Virus record (IMG/VR): IMGVR_UViG_2711768020_000006
Direction: 5' to 3' (one strand)
DNA: 43,597 bases
DNA from: a virus
Lineage: Duplodnaviria; Heunggongvirae; Uroviricota; Caudoviricetes
The translations under genes and the position numbers were made by a program. The notes under the pieces were generated by a model. It was not told the DNA's origin, made no database searches, and saw nothing but the letters and a program-made list of their open reading frames with translations. Numbering within the stretch: position 1 is the first letter of the stretch; each line of letters begins with the position of its first letter. Of this stretch, positions 10,179-33,137 are shown one piece after another.

Positions 10179-10601
10179 ATGGCTGAAACACAGATGAGCA
10201 TGTTTGGTGACAGCGAACAGCTGCACGCGCTGATTGACCGTCTGGATGATATTCCTGATGATGAGCTGAAAAAGAACTGGCCCGGCACGCTGCGGGACCT
10301 GGTTGATGTGATCAGTGCTGAACTGCACCGTCAGGGGATTGAACCTGCTCAGGCGGGAATGCTTGCCCGTAAGGTTGCAGCCGCACAGGCCGGGTACATG
10401 GGCGGGCGTGGTTATTATCTCCCGGTCGGTGAATCCCTTTTCACCGAACTGCGCAATAATGAAATTTTTTCCCGCTGGAGCCAGGGCGAAAAAATTGAAA
10501 CCCTGCGCCGCCACTACCAGATGTCAGAGACGCAGATTTACTCCGTTATCCGCAACCAGCGTCGCCTGCATCAGGAACGCACGCAGCCACGGCTTTTCTG
10601 A
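10179..10601 (+). CDS. Mor/C-family transcriptional activator (middle/late gene activator)
   Basis: 140 aa; position between gemA and the lysis genes; C-terminal HTH (YQMSETQIYSVIRNQRR). Whether it corresponds to Mor or C cannot be decided. Confidence 0.65.
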   Translation: MAETQMSMFGDSEQLHALIDRLDDIPDDELKKNWPGTLRDLVDVISAELHRQGIEPAQAGMLARKVAAAQAGYMGGRGYYLPVGESLFTELRNNEIFSRWSQGEKIETLRRHYQMSETQIYSVIRNQRRLHQERTQPRLF

Positions 10602-10672
10602 TATTCCGCAAATCCTGCCCCCTTTTCCTCACGGTTACGCTGACTCAGAGAACACCATGAGACAGCGTAACA

Positions 10673-11173
10673 ATGCCAAAACTCCCCGCACCCCTGCGTA
10701 AAAAGCTGATTGCCCTTGTTCTGGCCGGAGCCGGGACGTTCACCATTGCCACGCACTACACCGGCTACTGGGAAGGGAAAGAAAACACCACGTACATTGA
10801 TCCCACCGGCACCCCCACCATCTGTTACGGCCATACCGGCCCGGATGTGAAACCGGGGATGACAAAAACTGATGAAGAGTGTCTGGAGCTGCTGGAAAAG
10901 GACATGAAATGGGCCTTTGCGGCTATCGATCGTCATGTTCAGGTGCCGCTTACCCGTGGTCAGACGGTGGCGCTGGCCTCCTGGATTTTCTGGGCCGGTG
11001 AAACGAACTTTCGCAACTCCACGCTCCTGCGCCTTATCAATGCCGGGCAGATGCCCGCGTCCTGTAAGCAGTATATCCGCTGGATTTATTCAAAGGGGGT
11101 AAAACTCCCCGGTCTTGAGGCCCGCCGTTCGGCGGATGAATGGTTATGTCGTTACGATTTGCCGAAAGTCTGA
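10673..11173 (+). CDS. SAR endolysin (T4-lysozyme-like, GH24)
   Basis: N-terminal weakly hydrophobic signal-anchor LIALVLAGAGTFTIA; catalytic E-x8-D-x5-T pattern in YWEGKENTTYIDPTGTPT. Confidence 0.85.
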   Translation: MPKLPAPLRKKLIALVLAGAGTFTIATHYTGYWEGKENTTYIDPTGTPTICYGHTGPDVKPGMTKTDEECLELLEKDMKWAFAAIDRHVQVPLTRGQTVALASWIFWAGETNFRNSTLLRLINAGQMPASCKQYIRWIYSKGVKLPGLEARRSADEWLCRYDLPKV

Positions 11174-13245: not shown

Positions 13246-13494
13246 ATGGCAACAGATAACCGCTCACTGATGAGCAGTGCCCATCAGAAAGCATTCAGTC
13301 TTGCAACACAGTTACCTCCTGAAACCATAAAGGTATGTCGTGAGTTGACTGAACTCAGCATTGCCGGGGAAATATCCCTGGAACAACTGCATTCGCTGCT
13401 GGCAGAGGCTGCCACTGATGAGTTGAGCGGCGTGGACGTGATGACTGAAGAGCTTGAGTCCCGAATCAAAAGCATTCTGACAGGTAAAGCATGA
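13246..13494 (+). CDS. Small protein whose C-terminus duplicates the C-terminus of the gp27-like protein
   Basis: ATDELSGVDVMTEELESRIKSILTGKA versus AVTDELRGVDGMSEQIEFRIRQMLLGKA; strong AGGAGG Shine-Dalgarno. Confidence 0.45.
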   Translation: MATDNRSLMSSAHQKAFSLATQLPPETIKVCRELTELSIAGEISLEQLHSLLAEAATDELSGVDVMTEELESRIKSILTGKA

Positions 13495-15158
13495 TGAACA
13501 AAGCCAGAGAAACGTCGCCTTCACTGATGCAAATGACGCCTCCCCGCAAAATTGATCTGTCAGGTGAAAAAGCCCTGCTGGGCGTGGATGTGCCGGACAG
13601 CCTTGATTTGCCCGGTGATATGCCGGTGTTTCTGGATTATCAGGCCCGCTGGTTTGCAGATGAAAGTCAGGTCTGCATCGCGGAGAAATCCCGCCGCACC
13701 GGTCTTACCTGGGCGGAAGCCGGGCGTAACGTCATTACTGCTGCAAAACCGAAGCGTCGTGGTGGCCGCAATGTGTTTTATGTGGGATCAAAGCAGGAGA
13801 TGGCGCTGGAATATATTTCTGCCTGCGCGCTGTTCTCCCGTGCCTTTAACCAGCTGGCAGATGCTGATGTGTATGAGCAGACATTCTGGGATCGGGATAA
13901 AAAAGAAGAAATTTTGACCTACATGATCCGCTTTCCGAACAGTGGATTCAAAATTCAGGCATTGTCTTCCCGTCCGTCAAACCTGCGCGGCCTTCAGGGG
14001 GATGTGGTGATTGATGAAGCCGCGTTCCACGAGTCACTGGATGAGCTTCTCAAGGCGGCAATGGCGCTCACTATGTGGGGCGCGCGCGTGCGTATTATCT
14101 CCACGCATAACGGCGTCGATAATCTGTTTAATCAGTACATTCAGGAAGCCCGCGAGGGGCGCAAGGATTACAGCGTCCACCGCATAACCCTGGATGATGC
14201 CATTGCGGACGGGCTGTACCGTCGTATCTGTTACGTCACCGATCAGGAATGGTCACCGGAAAGCGAGCAGAAATGGCGTGATGATCTCTACAAAAACGCC
14301 CCGACCCGTGAGGATGCCGACGAGGAATACGGCTGTATCCCGAAAAAATCCGGCGGTGCCTATATCCCCCACGCGCTTATTGAAATGGCGATGATCCGCG
14401 ACATCCCGATTCTGACGTTTGAAGCCCCGGACAACTTCATCAGCCGTGCCGCATGGCTGCGTGAATCGGAAGTTTTAACCTGGTGTGAAGAACATTTAAA
14501 ACCGCTTTTAGAGAAATTAAATCCCCGTTCCCGCTTCAGCTTCGGGGAAGACTTTGCCCGCACCGGTGACCTGTCCTGCTTTGTGCTGCTGGAAATCACC
14601 GAATCCCTGGCAAAGCGCGAGGTGTTTCGCGTGGAGCTGCGCAACCTGCCGTATGCCCAGCAGGAACAGGTGATGATGTACATCCTGACCCGCGTTCCGG
14701 CGCTGGTCGGTGCGGCGTTCGACGCCACCGGTAACGGCGGCTATCTGGCAGAGGCCGCACTGCTGGCCTTTGGCCCGGACATCATCGACTGCGTGATGTT
14801 GTCGCCGAAGTGGTACGGCGAGTGGATGCCAAAACTGAAAGCCGAGTTTGAAGATCAGAATATCCTCGTCGCCCGCCATCAGACCACGCTTGATGATTTG
14901 CGCCATGTGAAGGTAGTGAATGGTATCCCGCAAATCGACAAGGGGCGCACGAAGGACCAGAACGCAACGGCTGCGAACGCCCGCCGCCATGGTGATTTTG
15001 CCGTGGCGCTCTGTATGGCAAACCGGGCGTCATACATGGAGGGCTTCATCCTGGATGAATCAGCCTGTCAGGCGCTACAGGAGCGGTCGCGGGCAATGGA
15101 GGGCGGTTATCGTGATGACGATGAGGCATATCATGAATTTGATCGGGGGGGCTGGTAG
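13491..15158 (+). CDS. Terminase large subunit (Mu gp28-like)
   Basis: 555 aa, position and size; the ATPase/nuclease architecture is inferred, not verified. Confidence 0.7.
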   Translation: MMNKARETSPSLMQMTPPRKIDLSGEKALLGVDVPDSLDLPGDMPVFLDYQARWFADESQVCIAEKSRRTGLTWAEAGRNVITAAKPKRRGGRNVFYVGSKQEMALEYISACALFSRAFNQLADADVYEQTFWDRDKKEEILTYMIRFPNSGFKIQALSSRPSNLRGLQGDVVIDEAAFHESLDELLKAAMALTMWGARVRIISTHNGVDNLFNQYIQEAREGRKDYSVHRITLDDAIADGLYRRICYVTDQEWSPESEQKWRDDLYKNAPTREDADEEYGCIPKKSGGAYIPHALIEMAMIRDIPILTFEAPDNFISRAAWLRESEVLTWCEEHLKPLLEKLNPRSRFSFGEDFARTGDLSCFVLLEITESLAKREVFRVELRNLPYAQQEQVMMYILTRVPALVGAAFDATGNGGYLAEAALLAFGPDIIDCVMLSPKWYGEWMPKLKAEFEDQNILVARHQTTLDDLRHVKVVNGIPQIDKGRTKDQNATAANARRHGDFAVALCMANRASYMEGFILDESACQALQERSRAMEGGYRDDDEAYHEFDRGGW

Positions 15159-16747
15159 TGGGACGCATCATTGATACTGACGGAAAACCTTTCTCCTTTG
15201 ACCCGGAGATGCAGAGTGCCGCGCTGGATATTCCGCAGATTGCCAGCCGTTATATTGAACATCCGGCTTCGGGTATCACCCCGAACCGGGCGGCGCAGTG
15301 CCTTCGCGGGGCTGAACGTGGCGATCTGATTGCCCAGTCCGATCTGGCCGCTGATATTGAAGAAAAGGACACCCACCTTTTTGCGGAGCTGGGCAAGCGA
15401 CGTCTTGCCATTCAGGGGGTGCCATGGAGTATTGAGCCGCCACCGAACGCCAGCGCGAATGAGAAAAAGGACGCGGAAATGCTCGACGAATATCTGCATT
15501 CCGCAGACTGGTTTGATGCCATGCTGTTTGACGCCACGGATGCCATCCTGAAGGGCTATTCCTGCATGGAAATTGAGCACGGGATGCTCGGTAAAATGCA
15601 CATCATCCGCGCCATCCGCTGGCGTGACAGCGGGCATTTCTGCCTTAACCCGGATGATTTGAGCGAACTGCGGCTGCGTGACGGCAGCCATGCCGGGGTG
15701 GCGTTTCAGCCCTTTGGCTGGATAGTGCATCAGTCGCGTTCACGCACCGGCTACGGTGGTGCGACGGGGCTTGTCAGAACGCTTATCTGGCCGTTCATTT
15801 TCAAAAACTATTCCGTGCGCGATCTGGCGGAATTTCTGGAGGTGTACGGCCTGCCAATGAAGGTCGGGAAATACCCGTCCGGGGCAACACCGGAGCAGAA
15901 AAGTGCCCTGATGCGGGCGGTGATGGATATCGGGCGACGTACAGGCGGGATCATCCCGGCCGGGATGTCGCTGGAGTTTCAGGCGGCAGCGAACGGTCAG
16001 GCCGATCCGTTTGAAACCATGATTTCGTGGGGTGAGCGTTCCATCTCCAAAGCAATACTCGGCGGCACGCTGACCACAGAAGCCGGAGACAAAGGCGCGC
16101 GCTCGCTGGGTGAGGTGCATAACGAGGTGCGCCGGGAAATCAGGGATTCTGATTTACGCCAGCTGGCTGCAACCCTGAACCGCGATCTGGTGTATCCGCT
16201 GTATGCCCTGAACACCGCCCACGCCATTGATATCCGTCGCCTGCCGCGTATCTGTTTCCAGACCAAAGAACCGGGGGATATCACCAAAATAGCCAGTGCG
16301 GTGATGCAACTCAGTGCGGGGATGGATATTCCTGATCCCTGGGTACGGGATCAGACCGGTATTCCACAGCCCACGCCCGGTGAAGCCATATTCCGTGTCC
16401 GTCAGAGCAGTAATGAACCGGCCATGCCTGACAGGGAAACGCTACCGGAAAAACAGGAAAAGACAGAACAGACGGCGCTTTCAGCCCGACTGCCGGAAGC
16501 GAAAAACACGCCGCGTGATGAACTGGACGACATGGGGGACGCGGTGCCTGCCCGCCGCTTACAGGAGGCCATCGATCCGGTGCTGGAGCCGGTCATTGAT
16601 GTCATCAGAACGCGGGGGCTGGCGGAGGCACTGGCAGACCTGCCTGCCCTTTACCGTGAAATGGATGATTCCCGCCTGATGACGCTGCTCAGTGATGCCA
16701 TGTTTGCTGCGGAAATGAAGGGGATGCTGGATGGCTCAGGGGATTGA
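15158..16747 (+). CDS. Portal protein (Mu gp29/H-like)
   Basis: 529 aa between terminase and the MuF-like gene; resembles the Mu-like portal family (from memory). Confidence 0.7.
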   Translation: MGRIIDTDGKPFSFDPEMQSAALDIPQIASRYIEHPASGITPNRAAQCLRGAERGDLIAQSDLAADIEEKDTHLFAELGKRRLAIQGVPWSIEPPPNASANEKKDAEMLDEYLHSADWFDAMLFDATDAILKGYSCMEIEHGMLGKMHIIRAIRWRDSGHFCLNPDDLSELRLRDGSHAGVAFQPFGWIVHQSRSRTGYGGATGLVRTLIWPFIFKNYSVRDLAEFLEVYGLPMKVGKYPSGATPEQKSALMRAVMDIGRRTGGIIPAGMSLEFQAAANGQADPFETMISWGERSISKAILGGTLTTEAGDKGARSLGEVHNEVRREIRDSDLRQLAATLNRDLVYPLYALNTAHAIDIRRLPRICFQTKEPGDITKIASAVMQLSAGMDIPDPWVRDQTGIPQPTPGEAIFRVRQSSNEPAMPDRETLPEKQEKTEQTALSARLPEAKNTPRDELDDMGDAVPARRLQEAIDPVLEPVIDVIRTRGLAEALADLPALYREMDDSRLMTLLSDAMFAAEMKGMLDGSGD

Positions 16748-18062
16748 TTTAGGTTATGCCGCCACGCTTCCCTCAAAAGAGACGGTGGCATACTTCCGCG
16801 CCAAAGGGGCGCATATCAGCTGGAACTGGTTCGAAACAGACGCGGATGTTCATGCCCGCTCATTCACGGCAGCAAAAACGGCACGGCTGGATGTGGTAAC
16901 CACATTACAGGCCGAAGTGCAGCGGGCCATTGATGAGGGGATTTCACAGAAAGAATTTATCCGCACACTGACGCCACGCCTGCAAAAGCTGGGATGGTGG
17001 GGAAAGCAGATTGTGGTGGACAGCGACGGTAACGCGGAAGAAGTGCAGCAGGGCAGTCCCCGTCGTCTGGCGCTGATTTACAACGTGAACACCCGTGTGG
17101 CTTACAATGCCGGGCGTTACACGCAGATGATGAACAACACGGACACGCATCCGTTCTGGCAGTATGTGGCGGTCATGGACAGCCGTACCCGCCCGTCGCA
17201 TTCCGCCCTTAACGGTCTGGTATTCCGCTATGACGATCCGTTCTGGAAAACACACTACCCGCCCAATGGCTGGAACTGCCGCTGCCGTGTGCGGCCATTG
17301 TCTCAGGCCCGTCTGGATGCAATGGGGTTATCCGTTTCATCCGGTGAGGATCATCTCTCCACCCGCAATGTTGAGGCTGGCGTGGATAAACAGACCGGAG
17401 AAGTCAGAGAAATGCCGGTGACCACATATTCAGATGGCGCCAGAACCATGACACCGGATGTGGGCTGGTCATATAACCCCGGCTCGGCAGCGTTCGGCAC
17501 AGACCAGGCGCTGATCCGCAAACTGATCGAGGTGAAAAGCCCGGCGTTACGGGAAATGGTGGTTCAGGAGATGAACAACAGCCCGGAGCGGCAGCTGGCG
17601 TTCCGCATCTGGGCAAAAAACATCATGCAGACCCGGCGAGGTGGTAACGATATCCGCACGCTGGGCTTTATGACTGAAAGCATTGCGCAGGCAGTGGAAA
17701 GCCGGACGGGAACGCCACCGGCCCGCCTGCTGGCGATGAGCGGTAAAAATGTGCTCCATGCGGACAGTGTGAAACATCAGAATGACGGCATCGCTCTGAC
17801 GCCGGAGGACTTCGGGCGCTTACCGGCAATGCTGGCAAGGCCAAAAGCGGTACTGTGGGACAAACGGCACAACAATCTGATGTATATCGTGGAAAATCAG
17901 GATGGCAGTGTGCAGATTGCCGTTAATGCACCGTACAGTCTGAAACGTCAGCCCGACAAACTGGATGTGATTGTGAATGCTTACCGGGTTATCAATATGG
18001 ATAAGCTGAAATCGGATATCCGGGGCGGAATGCTTGAGGTGCTGGAAGGACAAATTGATTAA
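16731..18062 (+). CDS. MuF-like head morphogenesis protein (Mu gp30/F)
   Basis: Conserved MuF motif region VMDSRTRPSHSALNGLVF...NGWNCRCRV. Confidence 0.8.
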   Translation: MAQGIDLGYAATLPSKETVAYFRAKGAHISWNWFETDADVHARSFTAAKTARLDVVTTLQAEVQRAIDEGISQKEFIRTLTPRLQKLGWWGKQIVVDSDGNAEEVQQGSPRRLALIYNVNTRVAYNAGRYTQMMNNTDTHPFWQYVAVMDSRTRPSHSALNGLVFRYDDPFWKTHYPPNGWNCRCRVRPLSQARLDAMGLSVSSGEDHLSTRNVEAGVDKQTGEVREMPVTTYSDGARTMTPDVGWSYNPGSAAFGTDQALIRKLIEVKSPALREMVVQEMNNSPERQLAFRIWAKNIMQTRRGGNDIRTLGFMTESIAQAVESRTGTPPARLLAMSGKNVLHADSVKHQNDGIALTPEDFGRLPAMLARPKAVLWDKRHNNLMYIVENQDGSVQIAVNAPYSLKRQPDKLDVIVNAYRVINMDKLKSDIRGGMLEVLEGQID

Positions 18063-18183
18063 CGGTCAGTGGCGGGGGTCGAACCCGCATACATGATCCA
18101 CCCGGAGGCAGGCACCGACTTTACCAGTTAAGCGTACACTGACCGCCTGTTTATTTTATATTCATCCTTTATGCGGAGGCAAT

Positions 18184-18657
18184 ATGTCATCCATTGATGC
18201 AGCTGTCGTTGTTGACGTTACGCGTCTCCAGCGAGTGTTTGCCCGGCTTCAGTTTGTGGGCGGCGGAAAAGACCTGGCCCGCAGTGTGGCGGCGAGTCTT
18301 CTGTCATCGTCAGAAATGGCGTTTGAGCAGGAAAAAGAGCCGGATGGTGAACGCTGGCATGACTGGTCAGATCCTTACCGTGAGTGGCGTACCCGTAAGG
18401 GATACACGCCCGGCAAAATCCTGACGCTGAACGGCGATCTGGCCCGCCGCCTGACCACGGATTATGGCGATACCTGGGCGCTGATTGGATCAAATGAACC
18501 TTATGCAGCCATTCATCAGTGGGGTGGCCTGCCTGGTATGCCACCGGGACCGGCGGCCATTGGCGCACGTCCGTATATGGGCTTTGATCAGGTGGCAGAA
18601 CAGGAGATCATGGACGAAATCAGAAAACGCTTTAAAAAGGCCACAGAAACGCCGTAA
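18184..18657 (+). CDS. Virion morphogenesis protein (Mu G-like)
   Basis: 157 aa, position after the MuF-like gene; resembles the Mu G family (from memory). Confidence 0.6.
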   Translation: MSSIDAAVVVDVTRLQRVFARLQFVGGGKDLARSVAASLLSSSEMAFEQEKEPDGERWHDWSDPYREWRTRKGYTPGKILTLNGDLARRLTTDYGDTWALIGSNEPYAAIHQWGGLPGMPPGPAAIGARPYMGFDQVAEQEIMDEIRKRFKKATETP

Positions 18658-18834
18658 TGGTTTAAGGTATGCAAACGTATTACCTTACCCCCTTCAGGCG
18701 CGTGTCGTGATTTTCTAACCTGTATTTAACGGGCTTTAAAATCTGCGTGAAGCGCCTTTCTCATTCCCCCCCTGTCAGCACTTTCTGAAGTCCCGCAAAA
18801 CCAGCCCCAAAAATACCCGGCTTATGCTGCCGGT

Positions 18835-19968
18835 ATGAAGACAGAAAATCACCCAAAAGACGCAAATCGCCCCTCCGGTTTAGCCGTGCTTTCAGCTTCG
18901 CTGACTGCATCCGGCGACGGATGGTGTCAGTTACTGCCAGCCGGTCGGGTAAAGGCCCGTGACGGTCGCCCGGAAAAACCGACTGAAGGCTGGCTGATTA
19001 ACGAATCCGCCTGTAACCGGATGAAAGCCGGGCTTTCCGCCCTGCATCAGCCGTTACTGATTGATTATGACCATCACTCCGTGAATGCGCAGAAAAACGG
19101 ATTCAAGGCTATTGCTGCAGGATGGGTTAAGCCGGAAAACATCGAATGGCGTGAGGGTCAGGGGATTTTCATTAAACCTGAATGGACACCACAGGCACAA
19201 AAACATATTGATGACCGTGAATATGCCTATCTGTCTGCATATATGCATTATTTCGCTGACACCGGGGAACCCTACCTGTTGCGCATGGCTTCCCTGACGA
19301 ATGATCCGGGTATTACGGGTATGAACCCTGTCGCGGCACTCAGTGCTGATGATCTCTATGTCGTTTCCCCTTCTCAGGAGCAATCCCCCATGAATGAGCA
19401 ATTACGCCAGTTGCTGACGGCGCTCGGTCTGACCGTGGCTGACGGTGACGAATTTACACCGGAACTGGGCACGGCGGCGCTGTCTGCCCTTACCGGGATC
19501 AAAACCCGTGCGGATGCGCACGACACCCTGAAAACGCAGGTTGCCAGCCTGTCGGCAGAACTGGAAACCGCAAAAGGCACACCAACTGGCGGCACTATTG
19601 ATCTGACGAAATATGTGCCCGTTGAGACGTATAACGCCCTGCGTACCGAATATGCCGCGCTGTCGGCACAACACGGCAGCACCACGCTGGAGCAGTTGCT
19701 GGATAAGGCCGAGTCCGAAGGACGCATTTTCAAAAGCGAACGCGGATACATGGAAGGACTCGGACAACAGATTGGCGTCGCGGCACTTTCTGCACAGCTT
19801 GACGCCCGCCAGCCGGTTGCGGCTCTGACCACTCTTCAGACCGACACCGTAACCGTGCCGGATAAAAAGACCGCCACCGCTGTGCTGTCGGCTGAAGATA
19901 TCGCCGCCGCACGTCTGTTGGGTAAAACCGAAGCCGAGTTCCTGAAAATGAAAGAGGAAATGCAATAA
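18835..19968 (+). CDS. Head protease/scaffold protein (Mu I-like)
   Basis: 377 aa immediately upstream of the major head gene; Ala/Thr-rich helical C-terminal half; start uncertain. Confidence 0.65.
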   Translation: MKTENHPKDANRPSGLAVLSASLTASGDGWCQLLPAGRVKARDGRPEKPTEGWLINESACNRMKAGLSALHQPLLIDYDHHSVNAQKNGFKAIAAGWVKPENIEWREGQGIFIKPEWTPQAQKHIDDREYAYLSAYMHYFADTGEPYLLRMASLTNDPGITGMNPVAALSADDLYVVSPSQEQSPMNEQLRQLLTALGLTVADGDEFTPELGTAALSALTGIKTRADAHDTLKTQVASLSAELETAKGTPTGGTIDLTKYVPVETYNALRTEYAALSAQHGSTTLEQLLDKAESEGRIFKSERGYMEGLGQQIGVAALSAQLDARQPVAALTTLQTDTVTVPDKKTATAVLSAEDIAAARLLGKTEAEFLKMKEEMQ

Positions 19969-20915
19969 TGCCTACCCCGATTACACCGGCGATGATCACC
20001 GCCCTGATGACGGGCTACCGTTCTGATTTTCAGGCCGGGATGTCCATGGCTCCGTCGCAGTACCAGAAAATTGCGATGACCGTGCCGTCCACCTCGAAAT
20101 CCAACACCTACGGCTGGCTGGGGCAGTTCCCGCAGTTCCGTGAGTGGATCGGCTCCCGCGTCATCGAGAAGATGAAAGCCTATGGCTACGCCATCGTGAA
20201 CAAAACCTTTGAAGGCACCGTTGCCATTAGCCGCGATGACTTTGAAGACGACAATCTCGGCATCTACTCCCCGTTATTCCAGGAAATGGGTCGTGCCGCT
20301 GCGGCACAACCGGATGAACTGGTCTTTGCTGCACTGCGTGATGGTCTGAATGCGGCCTGCTATGACGGCCAGAACTTCTTTGATACCGAACACCCTGTTT
20401 ACCCCAAAGTGGATGGCTCCGGTGATGCACAGATGGTCAGCAATATGTTTGTGGCAAAAACCGGCTCTGTCGGTGCACAGGCGGATTACAGCGGCCCGGC
20501 CTGGTATCTGCTTGACTGCTCCCGCGCGGTAAAACCGCTGATTTATCAGGATCGCCGCAAAGCCGAACTGGTTGCCCAGACAAAAGTCGATGAAGGCCGT
20601 GCGTTTACTGATAACGAGTTTGTGTTCGGTGCTTCCGCCCGTCGCAATGTGGGCTACGGCTTCTGGCAGATGGCCTACATGATGCAGTCACCGCTGACGC
20701 TGGATGCGCTGTGGCACGGCTGGTCAGCCATGCGTGACTTTAAGGCTGACGGTGGCCGCAAACTCGGCATCAAACCCACCCATATTGTTGTCCCCACCTC
20801 GCTGGAAAAACAGGCGGTGCAGCTGCTGGAGCGCGAGCTGTTCGCAGACGGTAACGCCACAGTCTCTAACGAGATGAAGGGCAAGCTGGAGCTGGTTGTC
20901 GCGGATTATCTGTAA
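19968..20915 (+). CDS. Major head (capsid) protein (Mu T-like)
   Basis: 315 aa, position, and a stable hairpin just downstream (20926-20951). Confidence 0.75.
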   Translation: MPTPITPAMITALMTGYRSDFQAGMSMAPSQYQKIAMTVPSTSKSNTYGWLGQFPQFREWIGSRVIEKMKAYGYAIVNKTFEGTVAISRDDFEDDNLGIYSPLFQEMGRAAAAQPDELVFAALRDGLNAACYDGQNFFDTEHPVYPKVDGSGDAQMVSNMFVAKTGSVGAQADYSGPAWYLLDCSRAVKPLIYQDRRKAELVAQTKVDEGRAFTDNEFVFGASARRNVGYGFWQMAYMMQSPLTLDALWHGWSAMRDFKADGGRKLGIKPTHIVVPTSLEKQAVQLLERELFADGNATVSNEMKGKLELVVADYL

Positions 20916-20958
20916 ACGGTGAGCCGGGCTTACGGCCCGGCCCCTGCGGAGGGCAAAT

Positions 20959-21318
20959 ATGAATGAACATCACACTGTGGCAGCAACAGATGATTCAGGC
21001 CTTCAGGTCAGTGGTGACAGTCCTGTCACGGTACTGGCAGAAGTGCGTTGCAGTCGTACGCATTTTCGTCGTGCGGGGTTCCTGTTCATGCGGGGACGCC
21101 AGCAGGTTGACGTCACCCCGGAGCAGCTTGCCCGACTGGAAGCGGAGCCATGCCTCACTGTACGAATACTACAGACGCCTGGTGATGATGCGGGAGCCGT
21201 GGCGGGTGTGGTTCATGCAGAGACCGGTGCAGATTTAGCCGAAGCCGAAACCGTACAGGATGCTCCCCGGAAAAAGACCGGCAATAACGCCAGACAGGCG
21301 AAAAAGGCGCGCGCATGA
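20959..21318 (+). CDS. Hypothetical head-associated protein (Mu gp35 position)
   Basis: ORF in Mu synteny. Confidence 0.4.
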   Translation: MNEHHTVAATDDSGLQVSGDSPVTVLAEVRCSRTHFRRAGFLFMRGRQQVDVTPEQLARLEAEPCLTVRILQTPGDDAGAVAGVVHAETGADLAEAETVQDAPRKKTGNNARQAKKARA

Positions 21319-21734
21319 ATTACGCCACCGAAACCGATATGCGGGCACGTTACCGCGAGGATTTGCTCAGGCCATTACTGGCCGTGCCCCGTTCGGATGA
21401 ACCGGACACGCGCAAGCTGAACCGGGCACTGACGGACGCGTCTGCCCTTATCGACAGCTATCTGTCTTCCCGTTACACGCTGCCGCTGGCGGTGGTTCCG
21501 GCGGTCCTTGTTCAGCATTGCTGCACGATTGCCTTTTATTACCTGTGCGATCAGCGGGCATCCGATCAGGCGCGTGACCGTTACCGTGAGGCGCTGGCCT
21601 GGCTGAAAGATGTCATGAACGGTAACGTGCCGGTCGGCGTGGATACAGACGGTGCGGCCCCTGAATCCGGGGATTTACCGCAGGTGCAGTCTGATGCGGC
21701 GGTGTTCGGGCGCAACCAGAAGGGCTTTATATGA
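21315..21734 (+). CDS. Head-tail connector-type protein (Mu gp36 position)
   Basis: ORF, translationally coupled. Confidence 0.45.
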   Translation: MNYATETDMRARYREDLLRPLLAVPRSDEPDTRKLNRALTDASALIDSYLSSRYTLPLAVVPAVLVQHCCTIAFYYLCDQRASDQARDRYREALAWLKDVMNGNVPVGVDTDGAAPESGDLPQVQSDAAVFGRNQKGFI

Positions 21735-22294
21735 TTACGGAAACCGAGCAGGCGTACATCGCCCGTATCCGTGAGTATTTCGGGAATGAACTGGTGTCTG
21801 TTGACACACATCCCGGCGACTGGAGCGACAGCGTACTGCGCACCATGCTGATTAACGCCCCGGCTATCTATGTTGCCTGGCTGGGTGCCGGTGAAGGGCG
21901 TACCCGTGGGCGTCTGGTCAGTCACTGGGTGTTCTACGTCATCGGCGACATGCTCAATGGCCGTGAGGTCAGCCGTCCCGGGCTTTATCAGATTGTGGCC
22001 CGCCTGATTACCGTGCTGGACGGCTTCAGAGCAGAAAAAACCTCACCGCTTTACTTTGAAAAGGCGGTCAACGGTTACACCGAAACGCAGGCAGGCAGCG
22101 GTGCCGTGATGTACGCCCTGTATTTCTCATGCGAGGAAATGATCGACCCGCTGACGGATATCAGCTCGCTGGATGATTTCCTGCGCCATTACGAAACCTT
22201 TACCGAACCGGAAGGCACGCCGGAATTTAAGGCACACATCCGTCTGCCTGGTGCAACTGCCGCCGGTGAAAACGCCGGACTGTCAGAGGAATAA
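21731..22294 (+). CDS. Head/tail completion protein (Mu gp37 position)
   Basis: ORF, translationally coupled. Confidence 0.45.
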   Translation: MITETEQAYIARIREYFGNELVSVDTHPGDWSDSVLRTMLINAPAIYVAWLGAGEGRTRGRLVSHWVFYVIGDMLNGREVSRPGLYQIVARLITVLDGFRAEKTSPLYFEKAVNGYTETQAGSGAVMYALYFSCEEMIDPLTDISSLDDFLRHYETFTEPEGTPEFKAHIRLPGATAAGENAGLSEE

Positions 22295-22297
22295 CAG

Positions 22298-22576
22298 ATG
22301 ACAACCATTTTTATTAAACCTGCGCCGGGATGCCTGATCCGCGATCCCGACACGATGACTCCGCTCTCTCAGGACGGGGAAGAGAAACCCTTCACTCCGT
22401 TCTGGTGCCGCCGTCTTAATGATGGCGACGTCATTGTGGTGGATAAAACGGCGGAGCCTGCCCCGGCTGCCACAACTGCTAATACCGGCGCGGCGGCAAA
22501 ACCAGCGGGAGCGGTAGCAGAAAAAACTGCGGCGGTGGCTGAAAAAACCGCAGCATCAGATAAGGGGACGTCCTGA
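22298..22576 (+). CDS. Hypothetical protein (Mu gp38 position)
   Basis: ORF with an Ala-rich repetitive C-terminus. Confidence 0.4.
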   Translation: MTTIFIKPAPGCLIRDPDTMTPLSQDGEEKPFTPFWCRRLNDGDVIVVDKTAEPAPAATTANTGAAAKPAGAVAEKTAAVAEKTAASDKGTS

Positions 22577-24078
22577 TGATTAACTTTGATTATATCGGCG
22601 ATAACAATCGCATTCCGCTGGTACAGATTGAAATCAATAATTCAATGGCCGTGACCGGCACTCCACCACAGCGTCAGGCGGTACTGTTGTTTGGTCAGGC
22701 TGCAATGAAAGACACTACCATTCAGGGGCGCGGTCAGCTTGATGTACCAGTACGTATTACCCGAGCTTCACAAGCAAGAGAACTCTGGGGGCGAGGTTCC
22801 ATGATTGCACTGATGGTAGAGGAATTTATCGCCATTAACCCTGACACAGAGTTATATGCCATTGCACAGGGGGCTGGAACAGGTCAGTCCAGGGCATGCG
22901 TGATGAATATCATTGGAACAGCATTGGCAGACGGGGTGTTAAGTGTTTACATCGGCGGTCGCCGTTACCTCCTGCCCGTCAGTAAGGGGAAAAAAGGTAA
23001 AGAGCTTGTGGAAGAGCTGGCTAAGGTCATTAACGCTGACACTGATGCGCCATTCACTGCTATCGCAGCTGAAGTCAGTGGTGATAATGCTGAAGGACTT
23101 AAAGGCAGCATGGGGGTTAACGCCCGCTTTATCGGTGAATGCTCAGCTCATGATTTACGGGTGAACTATTATGACGGTGAAACTACACCGGCCGGTCTTA
23201 CGCTGGAGCTCGTCGCGCCAACACAGAAGGCAACAAACCCCGATATCACCCGTAGCGTCTCAGGGATGGGGAATCGTCAGTACAACTACATCGTCATGCC
23301 CTATAAGGATGCGGCAAATCTCAAAATTCTGGCGGATGAACTGCTGAAACGCTGGGGACCGGTAAAAATGTCGGACGGTATGGTCTGGATGGCGCATACC
23401 GGCACCTTCGGTACGGCAACCAGTTTTGGTGAATCCCGTAATGACTTCCTGTTTACCTGCACTTCTATTCCTAAAGCACCAGAGCCGGATTATGTCTGGG
23501 CTGCCTCCATTTGTGCGGTCTGTGCGCCCTCCCTGTCAACGGATCCGGCCCGACCATTACAGACACTGGCGCTGCCTGCCCGTATGGCACCTGAAGCACC
23601 GGATCGTCTGACGCGGGAAGAGCGAAACAGCCTGCTTTATACCGGCATGTCCACGGTGACCGTCGCGGCCGCGGATGTGGTGCAGATTGAACGTCAGGTG
23701 ACGATGTACCGTCAGAATGCATACGGCGAAATCGATCCCAGCTATCTGGATGTGGAAACCATCTACACCCTGTCATATCTGCGTTATTCCCTGCGCACCT
23801 TTATCACGCAGCGTTTTCCGCGCCATAAACTGGCTGATGACGGGACGCCCGTTCGTGCCGGTCAGAATATCGTGACACCGGAGATCATGAAACTTCAGTT
23901 AATTTCGCTGGGGGAAGAATGGGTGGATCTGGGACTGGTCGAAAATCTGGACACCTTTAAAAAGAATCTGCTCGTGGAGCGCAACACAAAAGACCGTAAC
24001 CGTCTGGATGTGATGTGTACACCGGATCTGGTTAACCAGTTCCGCTTCATGGCCGCGCAGATCCGTTTCATTTTGTGA
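22576..24078 (+). CDS. Tail sheath protein (Mu L-like)
   Basis: 500 aa, directly upstream of a ~120-aa tube-sized gene. Confidence 0.7.
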   Translation: MINFDYIGDNNRIPLVQIEINNSMAVTGTPPQRQAVLLFGQAAMKDTTIQGRGQLDVPVRITRASQARELWGRGSMIALMVEEFIAINPDTELYAIAQGAGTGQSRACVMNIIGTALADGVLSVYIGGRRYLLPVSKGKKGKELVEELAKVINADTDAPFTAIAAEVSGDNAEGLKGSMGVNARFIGECSAHDLRVNYYDGETTPAGLTLELVAPTQKATNPDITRSVSGMGNRQYNYIVMPYKDAANLKILADELLKRWGPVKMSDGMVWMAHTGTFGTATSFGESRNDFLFTCTSIPKAPEPDYVWAASICAVCAPSLSTDPARPLQTLALPARMAPEAPDRLTREERNSLLYTGMSTVTVAAADVVQIERQVTMYRQNAYGEIDPSYLDVETIYTLSYLRYSLRTFITQRFPRHKLADDGTPVRAGQNIVTPEIMKLQLISLGEEWVDLGLVENLDTFKKNLLVERNTKDRNRLDVMCTPDLVNQFRFMAAQIRFIL

Positions 24079-24086
24079 GGTAAGGC

Positions 24087-24452
24087 ATGAGCGGAAAACA
24101 GTATCAGGGCACGGCCACCATCCGTGTGAACGGGCAGGAGTACGACACCCTTGAGGGGGCCACGTTCTCCCCGTCCGGCTTTGAGCGTGAAGTGGTGAAA
24201 GGCGCGAAAGTTTACGGCTATCGCGAGAAACCCCGTGAGGCGACGCTGGACTGTAAATTCCCGGCGGGCGGAGAAGGTTCACCGGCTGCCGATGAAATCA
24301 ACACCTGGACTGCGGTCACGATTGAGTTCGTGGCCGATACCGGTGAAGTCCACATGATGACGAAGGCCTGGAGCAGTGAACCGGCCTCGCTTGACGGTGG
24401 TGGTGATATCTCCGCGAAGTTCGCCAGCGCCACCAGTACCCGTGTCCAGTAA
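24087..24452 (+). CDS. Tail tube protein (Mu M-like)
   Basis: 121 aa after the sheath gene. Confidence 0.6.
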   Translation: MSGKQYQGTATIRVNGQEYDTLEGATFSPSGFEREVVKGAKVYGYREKPREATLDCKFPAGGEGSPAADEINTWTAVTIEFVADTGEVHMMTKAWSSEPASLDGGGDISAKFASATSTRVQ

Positions 24453-24466
24453 TCAGGAAAAATGTA

Positions 24467-24943
24467 ATGAGCACACGTAAGAAAAAAACGGCGGTTTCTG
24501 ACGAGGCCGTGATGGAGGCTATCCGGGATGCACTTGAAGACGGCGATCCCCGCACCGCCGGGCTGGCTGAACAACTGGCGAACGGCTATGTGGATCTGCT
24601 CGACGGTCTGCCGTTCGGGGAATCCCGTGAATACCGCGTCACCTTCCGCGAACTGACGGCAAAAGACAGCATTGATGCGGAGAGCGAGGCCGAGCGTCTT
24701 ATGGAAACCCGAAACGGTCCGGTTCTTGTGGCCTCACCGGCACTGCGCGGCATTGCGCTGCTGCGCCGTCAGATTGCCGCTGTCGGCCAGATTGAGGGGC
24801 CATTGTCTCCGCGTCAGATAGGACAGCTCAGCGAGCGCGATCTCTCCCGACTGATGGCGGCAGTAAGCCTGCTTGATTCCGCGATGGCCGGAAAGCTGGT
24901 CGCTGAACGGGGGCGACCAGATGCAGTGCCGGGATCAGATTGA
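24467..24943 (+). CDS. Tail assembly chaperone candidate (between tube and tape measure)
   Basis: Position; acidic helical protein. Confidence 0.45.
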   Translation: MSTRKKKTAVSDEAVMEAIRDALEDGDPRTAGLAEQLANGYVDLLDGLPFGESREYRVTFRELTAKDSIDAESEAERLMETRNGPVLVASPALRGIALLRRQIAAVGQIEGPLSPRQIGQLSERDLSRLMAAVSLLDSAMAGKLVAERGRPDAVPGSD

Positions 24944-25070
24944 AGAAGCCGCAATTGTGCTGGGGATGGTGACAAAAAGCGGCCCGGAGTGGGCGCTTAA
25001 CCTCCCCTTATCGCAGCTTTACCGGCACTGCCGACAGACCGAAAAAATTCTCAGAACGAAGCAGTAACCC

Positions 25071-27128
25071 ATGGCAAAAAACCTGAAAGCCTCCCTGATT
25101 GTCGATTTACTCGGCAATATTTCTGCCAAATCCCGCCAGTGGTCACAGGAGCTGGGGGCATTCTCCCGTTCCGGCAGGACGGGGCTGGGTGGTCTTGGAA
25201 ATGCAGCACGTCGTGCCGGTCAGGAGACAGAACTTGTCGGCTCCCGTATGCAGCGAACGCTTGCCGGTGTTCGTGGCAGTATCCGCACGGTGACGTCAGA
25301 TTTTGACCGCCTTCAGGGCAGCATTACCGGCACCATCGGGCGGATAAGCAACCTTTACGGGATGCTGGCGGGAGGGGCTGCGGTCTACGGGTTTAATAAA
25401 GCCTTTATCCGCCCGGCCGCAGAGATGGAGAACTATATTCTGCGTCTCAACGCCATTAATCATGGCGATACGGCAAAAACGGAAGCAGTGAAAGCCTGGG
25501 CGGTACAGAACGCCAAAGACACCACCTGGGGGCTGGCGGGGGTTATGCAGGAATACGCCTCCAGTCGCGGGTTCGGTATGAGTGACAGGGAAGCCCGTCG
25601 CTTTATTACCATGCTTCAGGATCAGGGCGGCTATCACGGCTGGTCACTGTCAGATGCACAGGGTGCGTCCCTGCAACTCAAACAGATGTTTGCCCGCCAG
25701 AGTATCCAGGCAGCGGACGCCAATATTCTGACCGGATACGGGATTAACGTTTACCAGTTGCTGGCCGATAAGCTGGGTGTAAACCAGAAGATCATCCGTG
25801 AGAAAGGCGAGAAAGGAAAACTGGGACCGGACAGCATTCGCCTGTTATTTCAGGTGATGGCCGAACAGGCAAAAGGTGCCCAGAAAAACGCCATGAATTC
25901 CTGGACGGGAATGACGTCCATGATGGGCGATGTCTGGGACGGATTTGCCCGCGAGGTGATGGCAAAGGGACCGTTTGACAGCCTGAAAAAGAGCCTGAAA
26001 GGCTTTCTGGATTATGCTGATGCGGCACAGAAAAGCGGCTTACAGGATAAGCTGGCCACACAGACGGCCTCAGCCCTGAATCAGGGATTTGAGTATGCCA
26101 GAGACGCTGCGACCGGCTTTTACCGGGTCATTCAGAAAGTCAGGGAAACGCTTCAGGCACTGCGCGACGCCGGTTATGGCGATGCGCTGGATCGCATTGG
26201 TCAGGGTGCGCAGACCGCCGCAAAGTACCTGATGTATATGTATCTCGCCTCCCGTGCGCTGAAGGTGCTCAGGTTTGCGGGGACGGGGGCATTACGTCTC
26301 GGCGCAACCCCCTTACGCTATGGCATGGCGATGACCTCCGTGCTGACGTCGCCCTTCCGCAAACCGCAGACCACTGTACCGGGAACGCAGCCCGGACGCG
26401 CTGGCCGGTTCCTGAATTTCCTTACCGGGGTAAATCCGGCTGCCGTTCAGCCCGTGCTGGTCACCAATTGGCCTGCGGGTGGCCTGGCCTCAGGTGGCGG
26501 GGATGTGGTGGTCAGCGGTGACGGCAAAACCGTGCGCGGCCGTAAAAAACGCGGCCCCGGACGTGGACGGGGTGTCACGACCGTCGTGACTGCCGGTGAG
26601 CAACTGGCGGAGAGTGCCGGTAAACAGGGCTTCTTCGGTCGTATGATGAGCCGTGCCGGTGGTCTGCTAACGGCGGCCGGAAACCGCATGGGGCTGGGGC
26701 GTTTTGCCGGGCTGTTCCGTGGTGCCGGTCGGCTGGGTGGTGGTGCCCTGTGGGCCGGTGCCATGGCGGCTCCTGTACTGCTGGACAGCAGCGCCAGTGC
26801 AGCCGATAAAGCCGGTGCCGTGGGTTCCCTTGCCGGAAGTATCGCCGGTGGCGCGCTGGGGGCGGCTGCCGGTCCGGTCGGGGTTGCCATTGGTTCCACG
26901 GTGGGCAGCTATCTCGGTGATTATCTGGGGGGCTGGCTGACGCAGGCCTGGCAGAAACTGCGTGGCGGCAGTGACGAAAACGGCGGACAGGCCACCGCGA
27001 AAACCGCCGCACGGGTGGAGCTTGTTGCCCCTGAAGGCTGGCGGGCGCGCAGTATTGATGTGGATGATACCGCACAGCATGGCCTGGATGTGAACGTCTG
27101 GAACGGAGGGAACTATGGCCTCTACTGA
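25071..27128 (+). CDS. Tail tape measure protein
   Basis: 685 aa, Gly/Ala-rich with a predicted helical N-terminus and Gly-rich C-terminus; position. Confidence 0.75.
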   Translation: MAKNLKASLIVDLLGNISAKSRQWSQELGAFSRSGRTGLGGLGNAARRAGQETELVGSRMQRTLAGVRGSIRTVTSDFDRLQGSITGTIGRISNLYGMLAGGAAVYGFNKAFIRPAAEMENYILRLNAINHGDTAKTEAVKAWAVQNAKDTTWGLAGVMQEYASSRGFGMSDREARRFITMLQDQGGYHGWSLSDAQGASLQLKQMFARQSIQAADANILTGYGINVYQLLADKLGVNQKIIREKGEKGKLGPDSIRLLFQVMAEQAKGAQKNAMNSWTGMTSMMGDVWDGFAREVMAKGPFDSLKKSLKGFLDYADAAQKSGLQDKLATQTASALNQGFEYARDAATGFYRVIQKVRETLQALRDAGYGDALDRIGQGAQTAAKYLMYMYLASRALKVLRFAGTGALRLGATPLRYGMAMTSVLTSPFRKPQTTVPGTQPGRAGRFLNFLTGVNPAAVQPVLVTNWPAGGLASGGGDVVVSGDGKTVRGRKKRGPGRGRGVTTVVTAGEQLAESAGKQGFFGRMMSRAGGLLTAAGNRMGLGRFAGLFRGAGRLGGGALWAGAMAAPVLLDSSASAADKAGAVGSLAGSIAGGALGAAAGPVGVAIGSTVGSYLGDYLGGWLTQAWQKLRGGSDENGGQATAKTAARVELVAPEGWRARSIDVDDTAQHGLDVNVWNGGNYGLY

Positions 27129-28473
27129 CACGCCGGGGCGTGGCTCCTTTCGTGGCGTACCGTTCCTGGTTTATCAGGAGCAGCGGGAACGGGGCGGACG
27201 TAACATTGTGCGCCGTGAATACCCACTGCGTGAAAGCGGCGGTGCGGATGATCTGGGGCCAAAACTCCCGGAGTTCACATTCACGGTTCTGGTGACCGGA
27301 GACGATCTTCAGACACAGCGAAGCCGCCTGCGTGATGCGCTGCGTGCACCCGGTGCCGGTGAACTGATGCACCCGGATTACGGCACGTTAAACGTGCTGA
27401 TAAACAGCTTTGAAAGCCGTTATAACGCCAGCGAGCAGGGAACGGTTGAGTTCACGATCAACGTGATCCCCGCCAGTGACGATACCGCCCCTGCGGTGGC
27501 AGAAGATACGGCAGCTGCGCTGGAGCAGAAAAGCGGCTCAGCAATGAATCAGCTGTTTAACACGCTTTCAGACGGCTGGACGGTGATTTCAGACGGTCTG
27601 CATGATGTACAGGCCATGACCGACACCATCAGCGATAAGATTGATGCACTGGAGAATGCCGTTTCGGGGATGGGGATTGTGCAGGATATCAGTGCCTTTA
27701 CGGCCAGTTTTACTGCCCTGAAAGGCAATGCCGCCGCCCTGATTAATGCGCCCCGTCGCATGGCTGAATCGCTGGCCGGAATGTTTGCCGTGCTGACCGG
27801 GCTGCCCGGCGATCCTTCCCTGTCTCTGACCGGAAAAGCCGGAACGCCGTCCGGCAGCCTGACCACAAACCGTGACAGCATGGCAGAGCAGGCCATGCCG
27901 CAGCTGTACCGCACACTTTCCTCCCTGCGTTACACCCTCAGCGAACAGGATGATCCACAGCGCCTGATTGGCCTGACGCCTGCGGCACAGAAAAATATCC
28001 GTCTGCTGCGGAGCGTGATGCAGAGTGCAACCCTGGTGTCGCAGGCACAGACGCTCGGAAAACTGCTGGATCAGGTCATCCGGCAGAATACGACGCACGT
28101 TCAGGATACTGACCGTTCGGGCGGACTGGCCTGGCTGGAAAGTTCTGCTGATGTGCAGCGTATCAACCGGGATTTGAGCGATGCCATGGAACAACAGGTG
28201 CTGGATCTGTCCGCACAGGGCTATACCGGGACTGCCCTTGCATTACGTGATGCAGGGCTTGCGCTGACAGAAGATTTAACCACACGGAGCGTGCATCTTC
28301 CCGGTGCTTTTCAGGTCATGGTTCGCACCACCGAACCGGCACTGGTCACGCTGTACCGTGCCACCGGCAACAGCAGTCGCTGGCAGTATTTTGTCCGCAG
28401 AAACAATATCCCCGATCCGGTTTTTGTTCCGGGTGGCCGCAGCGTGGAGGTGATCAGTGAGCAGCAGGATTGA
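27115..28473 (+). CDS. Mu P-like DNA circularisation protein
   Basis: 452 aa in Mu synteny after the tape measure. Confidence 0.6.
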   Translation: MASTDTPGRGSFRGVPFLVYQEQRERGGRNIVRREYPLRESGGADDLGPKLPEFTFTVLVTGDDLQTQRSRLRDALRAPGAGELMHPDYGTLNVLINSFESRYNASEQGTVEFTINVIPASDDTAPAVAEDTAAALEQKSGSAMNQLFNTLSDGWTVISDGLHDVQAMTDTISDKIDALENAVSGMGIVQDISAFTASFTALKGNAAALINAPRRMAESLAGMFAVLTGLPGDPSLSLTGKAGTPSGSLTTNRDSMAEQAMPQLYRTLSSLRYTLSEQDDPQRLIGLTPAAQKNIRLLRSVMQSATLVSQAQTLGKLLDQVIRQNTTHVQDTDRSGGLAWLESSADVQRINRDLSDAMEQQVLDLSAQGYTGTALALRDAGLALTEDLTTRSVHLPGAFQVMVRTTEPALVTLYRATGNSSRWQYFVRRNNIPDPVFVPGGRSVEVISEQQD

Positions 28474-29581: not shown

Positions 29582-30185
29582 TGAAGTGTTCAGCCGCCTG
29601 ATTGCCCCGGTAACGCGCGGTATTCGCCTGTTGTTTGGCCGGGGCGTTCTGACCGGCACACATGACGAACTGAAAATGCAGAATGTGCAGCTCACCGGCA
29701 TGGACGGCGAAACCTTTGATGATGTGGAGCGTCCCCAGCAGTACGGGCAGATCAGCGTTCCCCTGCCGGGTGCGGAAACCTTTTTTGCCTGTCTGGGCGG
29801 ACAGCGGGATCAGACTGTGGTGCTTGTGGTGGAAGACCGGCGCAGCCGCCCGACCGGACTCACAGCCGGAGATACGGGGGTGTATCACCATGAGGGGCAC
29901 CGGATACGGTTAACAAAGGATGGTCGCATTATTGTGACATGCAAAATGCTGGAGATTTACGCCGATGAGGGGATGCGGGTGGATACGCCGGAGGCCACCT
30001 TTACGGGCAATGTGACGGTGGATAAAAACCTGCATGTTAAGGGTAATTTCGTGCTTGATGGTACAGGTAAATCAGACGGGCTGTTCACGATGTCTGATGC
30101 CGTTATTGCCGGGATCACCTATTCCGGCCATGTGCATCAGGATAACGGCAAAGGCAGTAAGACAGGAGCGCCGGAGAATGGCTGA
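29571..30185 (+). CDS. Baseplate spike/assembly protein (Mu V-like)
   Basis: Synteny and size. Confidence 0.55.
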   Translation: MMNDEVFSRLIAPVTRGIRLLFGRGVLTGTHDELKMQNVQLTGMDGETFDDVERPQQYGQISVPLPGAETFFACLGGQRDQTVVLVVEDRRSRPTGLTAGDTGVYHHEGHRIRLTKDGRIIVTCKMLEIYADEGMRVDTPEATFTGNVTVDKNLHVKGNFVLDGTGKSDGLFTMSDAVIAGITYSGHVHQDNGKGSKTGAPENG

Positions 30186-33129: not shown

Positions 33130-33137
33130 TGATATTC

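Follow-up and report, generated by a model that had tools for sequence, protein, structure and literature searches.

The gap between the G-like and I-like genes of a Mu-like prophage is described here as a composite control region, the first ~100 bp of which are very probably the central strong gyrase site (SGS) of the prophage, followed by a probable late promoter. The gyrase-site reading rests on the position of the segment, its homology to the sites of two related phages, a match to the gyrase motif and conservation across lineages; by homology with Mu, gyrase would be expected to bind and cleave the DNA at this place and to influence the synapsis of the prophage ends. A first-pass annotation had named the gap as a candidate SGS, a proposal that gains support from the homology to the Sp18 and Mu sites and from a motif peak at the position homologous to the Mu cut. 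That proposal was nevertheless incomplete, as the gap also holds the probable late promoter and a hairpin, and as its motif score is not the best of the prophage. All coordinates refer to the window, that is, the whole stretch of 43,597 nucleotides that was analysed (IMG/VR record IMGVR_UViG_2711768020_000006). The prophage and the two genes that delimit the gap are as follows.

607-39239, plus strand: Mu-like (Sp18-type) transposable prophage, 38,633 bp, with the predicted gyrase site in a central position.
18184-18657, plus strand: G-like virion morphogenesis gene (PF05069, E 1e-33), product 55% identical to Mu G.
18835-19968, plus strand: I-like protease/scaffold gene (PF10123, E 8e-89), the first head-operon gene downstream of the gap.

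The ends of the prophage are marked by a terminal inverted repeat (607-634 and 39212-39239), and also by the junctions at which similarity to Sp18 and to the Mu-like insert of Stx1_JNE122137 starts and stops. Between these ends the prophage is collinear with Sp18 (70-96% identity) and with Mu (64-72%), and homologues of the portal protein (H), F, T and gp36 surround the G-like and I-like genes in the same order as in Mu. The G-I gap extends exactly from 18658 to 18834. Because the prophage ends at 607 and 39239, the gap lies 18,051-18,227 bp from the left end, 47% of the way along the element; the distance of about 18.0-18.2 kb given earlier agrees with the measured 18.05-18.23 kb. The predicted gyrase dyad falls at 0.468 of the prophage length, and its equivalents at 0.487 in Mu and 0.472 in Sp18. 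Three places in the genome of E. coli JE86-ST05 match the G-I query, the best of them at 100% identity; such sequence matches would fit an element that is still transposing and suggest that the phage is mobile.

The Pfam matches of the two flanking genes and the listing of open reading frames confirm that the gap is 177 bp long and free of ORFs. In Pseudomonas Mu-like phages the same slot is used for accessory genes, for instance anti-CRISPR genes. A small gene of this type, or a small RNA, hidden in the gap would therefore have precedents in other Mu-like phages, and the 676-bp gap of the Edwardsiella-type relatives (L041 and L046) could hold a gene. However, no ORF of at least 20 aa lies inside the gap, in accordance with the previous statement that no anti-CRISPR ORF is found in this slot. 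The four ORFs that touch the gap are out-of-frame overlaps with G or I, and one of these (18761-18910, minus strand) is disrupted by 1-bp indels in relatives. A protein-coding gene is effectively refuted by this absence of ORFs and by the 1-bp indels. An Rfam search of the gap gave no match and a scan of its plus strand found no sigma-70 consensus promoter, which argues against a hidden gene or RNA; overall, this explanation is extremely improbable.

The gyrase site was located with a reconstruction of the published E. coli gyrase matrix (130 bp, periodic G/C content; Sutormin et al. 2019). The input consisted of 587 cleavage sites with published coordinates and motif scores, together with the first 250 kb of E. 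coli W3110, and a two-fold symmetric 130-bp matrix was fitted by trimmed least squares, the strand asymmetry of the original being omitted. About 85% of the sites are fitted nearly exactly (residual scale 0.12 bits), and the rest have only positive residuals, which is expected of a published score that takes the higher value of the two strands. Held-out residuals have a median of 0.03 and an interquartile range of -0.27 to 0.38; the held-out error is about 0.3-0.5 bits for 83% of the sites. Three controls lay outside the fit: the Mu fragment scored 13.38 (published values, 13.33 in-genome and 14.3 for the fragment), the consensus scored 34.1 (published, 36.8), and the Mu SGS came out at rank 1 in the Mu genome with a score of 12.42 and its stagger at 17876-17879, the published analysis also giving it the highest score in Mu. 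Other scoring schemes were rejected. An unweighted count of consensus matches failed the Mu control, the Mu SGS ranking 801 with exact matches and 473 with G/C versus A/T matches. Plain ridge regression reached a cross-validated r of 0.875, but with a compressed scale (consensus 24.6; Mu 9.2, rank 2), and an asymmetric matrix, fitted forward-only or by expectation-maximisation, performed less well (r 0.66-0.76), the number of equations being too small.

Within 18600-18900 the motif has its local maximum at 18673, in the sequence TAAGGTATGC/AAAC/GTATTACCTT, with a score of 8.12 that is reached by 3.1e-4 of the W3110 background positions (top 0.03%). The parts of the predicted site, none of which is assigned to a strand, are the following.

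18610-18656: predicted left arm, motif positions -63 to -17, in the 3' end of G (last ~47 nt); partial score 4.57 (background mean 0.07, sd 2.11).
18657-18692: predicted core, motif positions -16 to +19; partial score 3.52 (background sd 1.81).
18673-18676: predicted 4-nt cleavage stagger AAAC, 16-19 nt past the G stop, at the local maximum of the matrix.
18693-18739: predicted right arm, motif positions +20 to +66, a segment conserved with Mu; partial score 4.0 (background 0.09, sd 2.11).

The left arm, core and right arm thus each score about 2 sd above the background mean. A palindrome in the core, AAGGTA-N11-TACCTT (18664-18686), is centred on the predicted dyad and forms a stem in the RNA fold, and the right arm carries the phased A/T tracts GATTTTCTAAC, GTATTTAACGG and GCTTTAAAA. 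Unlike in Mu, where the site ranks first, this is not the strongest predicted gyrase site of its prophage: it ranks 33 of 38,633, with 32 positions scoring higher and the best of these (10.95) at 24730. The Sp18 site has a score of 7.04 and ranks 69 of 38,754 in Sp18; since this reportedly functional site is not at the top of its genome either, top rank is not a strict requirement. On the E. coli chromosome, ordinary sites that score this high occur about 3 times per 10 kb, and no organising role is known for these common sites. The site in the gap is set apart from these chromosomal sites by its conserved position and its homology, not by its score, and the motif supports the place of the site rather than an exceptional strength.

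The closest described counterpart is found in Sp18, a prophage of E. coli O157:H7 Sakai (10972-49730 of L003). Its gap occupies the same slot, between the G and I genes ECs_4972 and ECs_4973, and is 176 bp long against 177 bp here; the predicted cut is likewise 16 nt past the G stop. Over the 105 bp that follow the G stop, 3 substitutions separate the window from Sp18, and these two share with the Stx1_JNE122137 insert a right-arm stretch of 63 identical bp. Two of the three substitutions fall at the predicted cleavage site, which reads AAAC/GT here and AAAT/GC in Sp18, and with these changes the matrix score rises to 8.12, against 7.04 in Sp18. Divergence from Sp18 is greater on the promoter side of the gap, and gene I is mosaic from about 19002. 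A review (PMC10052514, citing Oram & Pato 2004) names the Sp18 site as the only one, among all sites tried, found able to replace the Mu SGS. Judged by its sequence, the site in the gap is a near-identical allele of this reportedly functional site.

The resemblance to the site of Mu itself is more distant, but it extends to the architecture of the whole region. The Mu record describes a 196-bp G-I gap with a gyrase cut at 17879/17880, a predicted terminator at 17908-17953 and a C-dependent late promoter, P_I, at 17977-18043. The first-pass annotation had rightly placed the Mu site in the G-I region; the position it gave, 18.1 kb, differs trivially from the ~17.9 kb of the record. Using the 133-bp Mu fragment and the consensus from the supplement of Sutormin et al. 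2019, we fixed the Mu stagger as AATC, 17876-17879, which is 17-20 nt past the G stop. The flanking genes are the same in both phages, the site is central in both (0.47 here, 0.49 in Mu), the left arm lies within the 3' end of G in both, and the predicted cut is 16 nt past the G stop here and 17 in Mu. In Mu and in the window alike, a right arm with phased A/T tracts is followed by a hairpin and then by the late promoter. The best ungapped 26-mer between the two gaps has 22 of 26 positions identical (CGGGATTTTTAAACCGGTATTTAACG in Mu, CGTGATTTTCTAACCTGTATTTAACG in the window). In both phages this block, part of the Mu right arm, begins 48 nt past the G stop. Across 200 shuffles the best match was 19/26, and identity to Mu in the coding flanks is only about 70%. 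A lack of similarity to the Mu site had been named at the outset as an observation that would speak against a gyrase site; since the alignment reveals 22 of 26 identities in the same register, this objection falls away. The two sites also differ. The Mu site scores 12.4 and is the top of its genome, whereas the window site scores 8.1 and ranks 33; the tract nearest the core is TTTTTTAAAA in Mu and CCCCCTTCAGG in the window, and the core sequences are not alignable except for GG-AT.

Other strong sites are less comparable. Those of pSC101 par and pBR322 are preferred gyrase binding and cleavage sites; to our knowledge, they have no sequence relation or positional logic comparable to that of the window site. 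According to PMC10052514, neither can take the place of the Mu SGS, whose deletion delays Mu DNA synthesis after induction by about 100 min. The prophage domain and end synapsis of Mu require the SGS (PMC3820752), and the right arm of this site is essential while its left arm is dispensable (PMC10052514, PMC13284261).

The position of the site beside the G stop was then compared across lineages. A search with the G protein yielded 35 viral contigs and a search with the G alignment 13 genome loci, and for each locus the top-scoring motif position was recorded within an interval that starts 30 nt ahead of the G stop and ends 150 nt beyond it. The offset of the cut is identical in all 24 close relatives scored, in Sp18 and in the Stx1_JNE122137 insert. 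By lineage, the offsets from the G stop (nt), motif scores and ranks are as follows.

Mu: offset +17, score 12.4, rank 1 of 36,588.
Citrobacter braakii, L034-L039 (the Citrobacter type also includes L045): +15, 10.7-13.4, rank 1-2 of ~20,000.
Edwardsiella, L041 (the Edwardsiella type also includes L046): +13, 11.2, rank 2 of ~20,000.
Enterobacteriaceae L047: +18, 10.4, rank 1 of ~20,000.
Enterobacteriaceae L048: +18, 17.4, rank 1 of 15,162.
Erwinia tracheiphila: +26, 12.4, rank 1 of ~20,000.
Apirhabdus: -4, 12.0, rank 1 of ~20,000.
Kluyvera, three loci: +18, 8.1-9.4, ranks 1, 3 and 10 of ~20,000.
L040: +10, 8.3, rank 74 of ~20,000.
Window/Sp18 type: +16, 6.5-8.8, weaker.

A top-three site near the G stop is therefore present in 8 of the 10 enterobacterial Mu-like lineages, while a top-three position would fall inside the 180-nt search window by chance about 3% of the time. 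The distant loci from Oleiphilus, Treponema and a proteobacterium of 70% G+C show no top-ranked site near the G stop. When aligned on the predicted cut, the right arms of the window, of Mu and of nine other lineages are in register, with TTTTAAA/TTTGAAA at +15 to +22, CGCG at +23 to +27, GATTT(T)nAAAC at +35 to +45 and GTnTTTAAC at +47 to +55. The first of these A/T tracts (TTTTAAA in Mu and most relatives) is missing in the window lineage, which retains every other tract of the right arm.

Within the window/Sp18 lineage, constraint was assessed by counting variable columns among 20 distinct sequences of this type.

G third codon positions: 43 of 157 variable.
G first and second codon positions: 12 of 317 variable.
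18658-18692, core side: 8 of 35 variable.
18693-18760, right arm/hairpin: 4 of 68 variable.
18761-18834, promoter side: 24 of 74 variable.

The right-arm/hairpin segment is constrained like non-synonymous sites, more so than the third codon positions of G (Fisher p = 1.4e-4) and more so than the promoter side (p = 9e-5), and is thus under purifying selection. The variants of the core side cluster at the predicted cut (18671, 18672, 18676, 18677, 18678 and 18682). Because the conserved segment overlaps a stable hairpin, the constraint could act on a terminator and not on gyrase wrapping. Two features bear on this point.

18696-18757, plus strand: long imperfect hairpin overlapping the right arm; -23.7 kcal/mol, z -4.2, none of 200 shuffles as stable.
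18757-18775, plus strand: pyrimidine tract CTTTCTCATTCCCCCCCTG, containing a polymorphic run and 1-bp indels; variable columns 18760-18776.

In Mu, a hairpin annotated as a predicted terminator occupies the corresponding place, and the hairpin of the window is possibly a lineage-specific terminator of the upstream late (lys-to-G) transcript. The pyrimidine tract, which has similar counterparts in L048 and in Mu, may be a terminator tail or an upstream promoter element. The gap might accordingly be a transcription boundary and nothing else, a terminator hairpin for the lys-to-G transcript followed by a late promoter for I, at which gyrase would have no special role. The stability of the hairpin, the predicted terminator and mapped late promoter of the Mu gap, the retention of the hairpin in Mu and in the window despite differing 3' arm sequences, and the rank of 33 of the gyrase motif in the prophage are all in favour of this explanation. 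However, it is in the primary sequence of the 5' arm and loop (GATTTTnnAACCnGTATTTAACGG) that Mu and the window agree, whereas a terminator would need a paired stem. The T-run after the hairpin is poor (tail CCUUUCUCAUUCC), and a consensus scan of the plus strand of the gap called no terminator. Moreover, no significant hairpin forms in the relatives from Kluyvera (z +1.8) and Edwardsiella (z -0.2), and yet these keep a motif of rank 1-3 (rank 10 at one Kluyvera locus) together with the phased tracts, and the Citrobacter-type gap, which is only 81 bp long, still has its best site 15 nt past the G stop (rank 1-2). The Sp18 allele, finally, is reported to work as an SGS (PMC10052514). Since the roles of terminator and gyrase site are not exclusive, the boundary explanation stands only in its 'nothing but' form, and in that form it is distinctly unlikely.

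The remainder of the gap holds the probable late promoter. The elements concerned are the following.

18786-18808, plus strand: 23-nt motif TGAAGTCCCGCAAAACCAGCCCC, candidate C/Mor-type late activator binding site (P_I-like promoter).
18823-18828, plus strand: TATGCT, -10-like hexamer of the putative late promoter, invariant among relatives.
10179-10601, plus strand: C/Mor-family late activator gene (PF08765, E 7e-31).
10673-11173: lysozyme gene (PF00959), after the twin promoter motif.

The sole other copy of the 23-mer in the window, at 10599-10621, is located between the Mor-family gene, which it directly follows, and the lysozyme gene. The copies agree at 18 of 23 positions (a value reached by none of 300 shuffles), the whole promoter shares 28 of 46 in register, and TTAYGCTG is equally distant from the 23-mer in both. 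Judging from the position of the -10-like hexamer, the putative +1 would fall on the A of the gene I ATG. The late-promoter motif differs from that of Mu, TyCCGCAAAnCC here against ccATAAcCCC there, and two copies were found in the window versus four in Mu; no further copy, such as would be expected for the P and mom promoters, was present in the window with at most 9 mismatches in 28. Because of the analogy with Mu Plys and P_I, the last ~50 bp of the gap are probably a C/Mor-activated late promoter for the head genes from I onwards. As is typical of C-dependent promoters of this type, the candidate lies upstream of I and pairs a weak -10 with an upstream motif found at another putative late promoter, the plus-strand scan calling no sigma-70 consensus promoter, and the phage encodes a Mor/C-family activator; Mu has P_I in the corresponding place.

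The repeats of the right arm also call for comment. As an alternative to gyrase, these TTTnAAAC repeats might bind another DNA-bending protein (host IHF, Fis or HU, or a phage-encoded protein) that organises the centre of the prophage, the role of gyrase being secondary; we know of no right-arm-binding factor of this kind. In favour of such a protein, generic bendability would not require repeats of this sequence specificity and of this conservation between genera, and the prophage domain of Mu depends on IHF, Fis, HU and MuB as well (PMC3820752). However, cryoEM shows the Mu right arm wrapped on one GyrA CTD, with the A/T minor grooves toward the protein and the T-segment presented (PMC11626157), and the same periodicity belongs to the genome-wide gyrase motif, so that another protein as the main ligand is quite improbable.

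For the central SGS that we favour, the course of events can be proposed from what is described for Mu. Host DNA gyrase would bind the site, with the cleavage dyad about 17 nt past the G stop, at 18673-18676. The right arm (about 18693-18740), with its A/T tracts one helical turn apart, would wrap one GyrA CTD and present the T-segment, and gyrase would then supercoil processively from this fixed place. With the site near the middle of the 38.6-kb prophage, the growing plectoneme would have the site at its tip and the two prophage ends would be drawn together, which would allow the transposase to build the transpososome quickly after induction. The right arm would at the same time overlap a hairpin that may end the upstream late transcript.

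Several features might go beyond this scheme. The register-locked TTTnAAAC repeats, conserved past the G stop in Mu-like prophages of at least 7 enterobacterial genera, may represent a sequence-specific signal and not generic bendability, a signal whose reader could be the GyrA C-terminal domain or some additional factor. The window and Sp18 sites lack the first repeat and score 7-8, and yet the Sp18 site reportedly works; what makes a site 'strong' would thus escape the genome-wide cleavage motif. The cluster of substitutions at the cleavage site among near-identical prophages could be a tuning of strength, like the nuB mutations of Mu, and the overlap with the possible terminator hairpin could link gyrase loading to the end of late transcription. 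This more far-reaching reading, of a sequence-specific right arm, a strength beyond the genome-wide motif, its tuning and a coupling to transcription, is rather unlikely.

A central SGS is an expected and already described feature of the Mu-like phage family, and the current picture of Mu biology is unchanged. An annotation should describe the gap as strong gyrase site and late promoter P_I rather than as an empty spacer, and a deletion or insertion in it is expected to slow the replication of the prophage after induction. The ten-lineage set, in which the cut is 13-18 nt past the G stop in most cases and the right arms are in register, constitutes an alignment in which the features of a 'strong' site can be sought; it also provides a simple rule for locating gyrase sites in new Mu-like prophages. 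Stx phages and other elements of pathogenic E. coli harbour prophages of this type, which can be present in several copies and whose mobility bears on genome rearrangement in these pathogenic strains.

The substitutions that distinguish near-identical prophages in the initial portion of the gap between the G-like and I-like genes (18658-18834), the proposed location of a strong gyrase site and of the late promoter, are concentrated where gyrase is predicted to cut, between positions 18671 and 18682. The variants found there (GC-AAAC-GT, AC-AAAC-GC, GT-AAAC-GT and GC-AAAT-GC, hyphens enclosing the four bases of the predicted cut) move the gyrase motif score, calculated with a matrix rebuilt from published E. 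coli cleavage scores, within 6.5-8.8. This clustering is reminiscent of the nuB mutations of Mu, which altered the strength of the gyrase site (PMC10052514). [quoted passage not shown] Should the -10 element of the late promoter be TATGCT (18823-18828), the mRNA would begin with the first base of the ATG of gene I (the A at 18835) and would be leaderless. No Shine-Dalgarno sequence precedes this ATG. In Mu, a ribosome-binding site is annotated and the leader is longer.

In the Citrobacter-type relatives (L034-L039 and L045), the entire G-I gap is just 80-81 bp long (10478-10558 in these loci) and is mostly occupied by a predicted gyrase site scoring 10.7-13.4, the TTTTGAAA repeats of which extend to the I start codon; neither a terminator nor a late promoter of the Mu type has room there. 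When considering the whole window, the top gyrase-motif score (10.95, at 24730) exceeds every position in the first 250 kb of E. coli W3110, and is located in the tail-gene region rather than in the central gap. High scores are also clustered at 26649-26826.

Comparison with Sp18, the Mu-like prophage of E. coli O157:H7 Sakai, indicates that gene I becomes mosaic. Identity falls from 92.5% over 13400-19002 to 80.6% over 19302-32920, and the intervening stretch within gene I (19002-19302) does not align, which places a recombination boundary shortly 3' of the gap. Further downstream, at 32770-34102, a segment of about 1.2 kb with a low G+C content of 0.43 is enclosed by inverted repeats with lengths of 86 nt (93%) and 50 nt (84%); this is most likely an invertible tail-fibre region resembling the G segment.

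The left terminus of the prophage (607-616) reads TATAACCAGG, and junction comparison gives TGTAACCAGG for both Sp18 and the related Mu-like insert of Stx1_JNE122137; the otherwise conserved terminal TG is TA in the window prophage. The right end (39232-39239) is ...GCGCTATA in the window and in Sp18 alike, ending in TA where Mu has CA. At the flanks, the duplicated sequence seems to comprise 4 bp (GACA) and not 5. The insertion point is close to the 3' end of an IS66-family tnpB gene (PF05717), and the right flank comprises only the following:

39240-43597: IS66 transposase (C-terminal part only), lambdoid tail-fibre gene, DUF4376 gene and type III effector (LRR and NEL E3-ligase domains)

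With such flanks (1-606 and 39240-43597), the host site looks like another prophage. The two ends of the window (1-100 and 43498-43597) are perfect inverted copies (100 nt, 100%); they may represent a pair of IS66-family copies in inverted orientation, or stem from the way in which the window was assembled.

A query spanning the G-I region (18400-19100) has three matches in the chromosome of E. coli JE86-ST05 (NZ_AP022815.1), the best at 100% identity, and related Mu-like inserts are annotated within Stx1a and Stx2c phages. Together, these occurrences suggest recent transposition.
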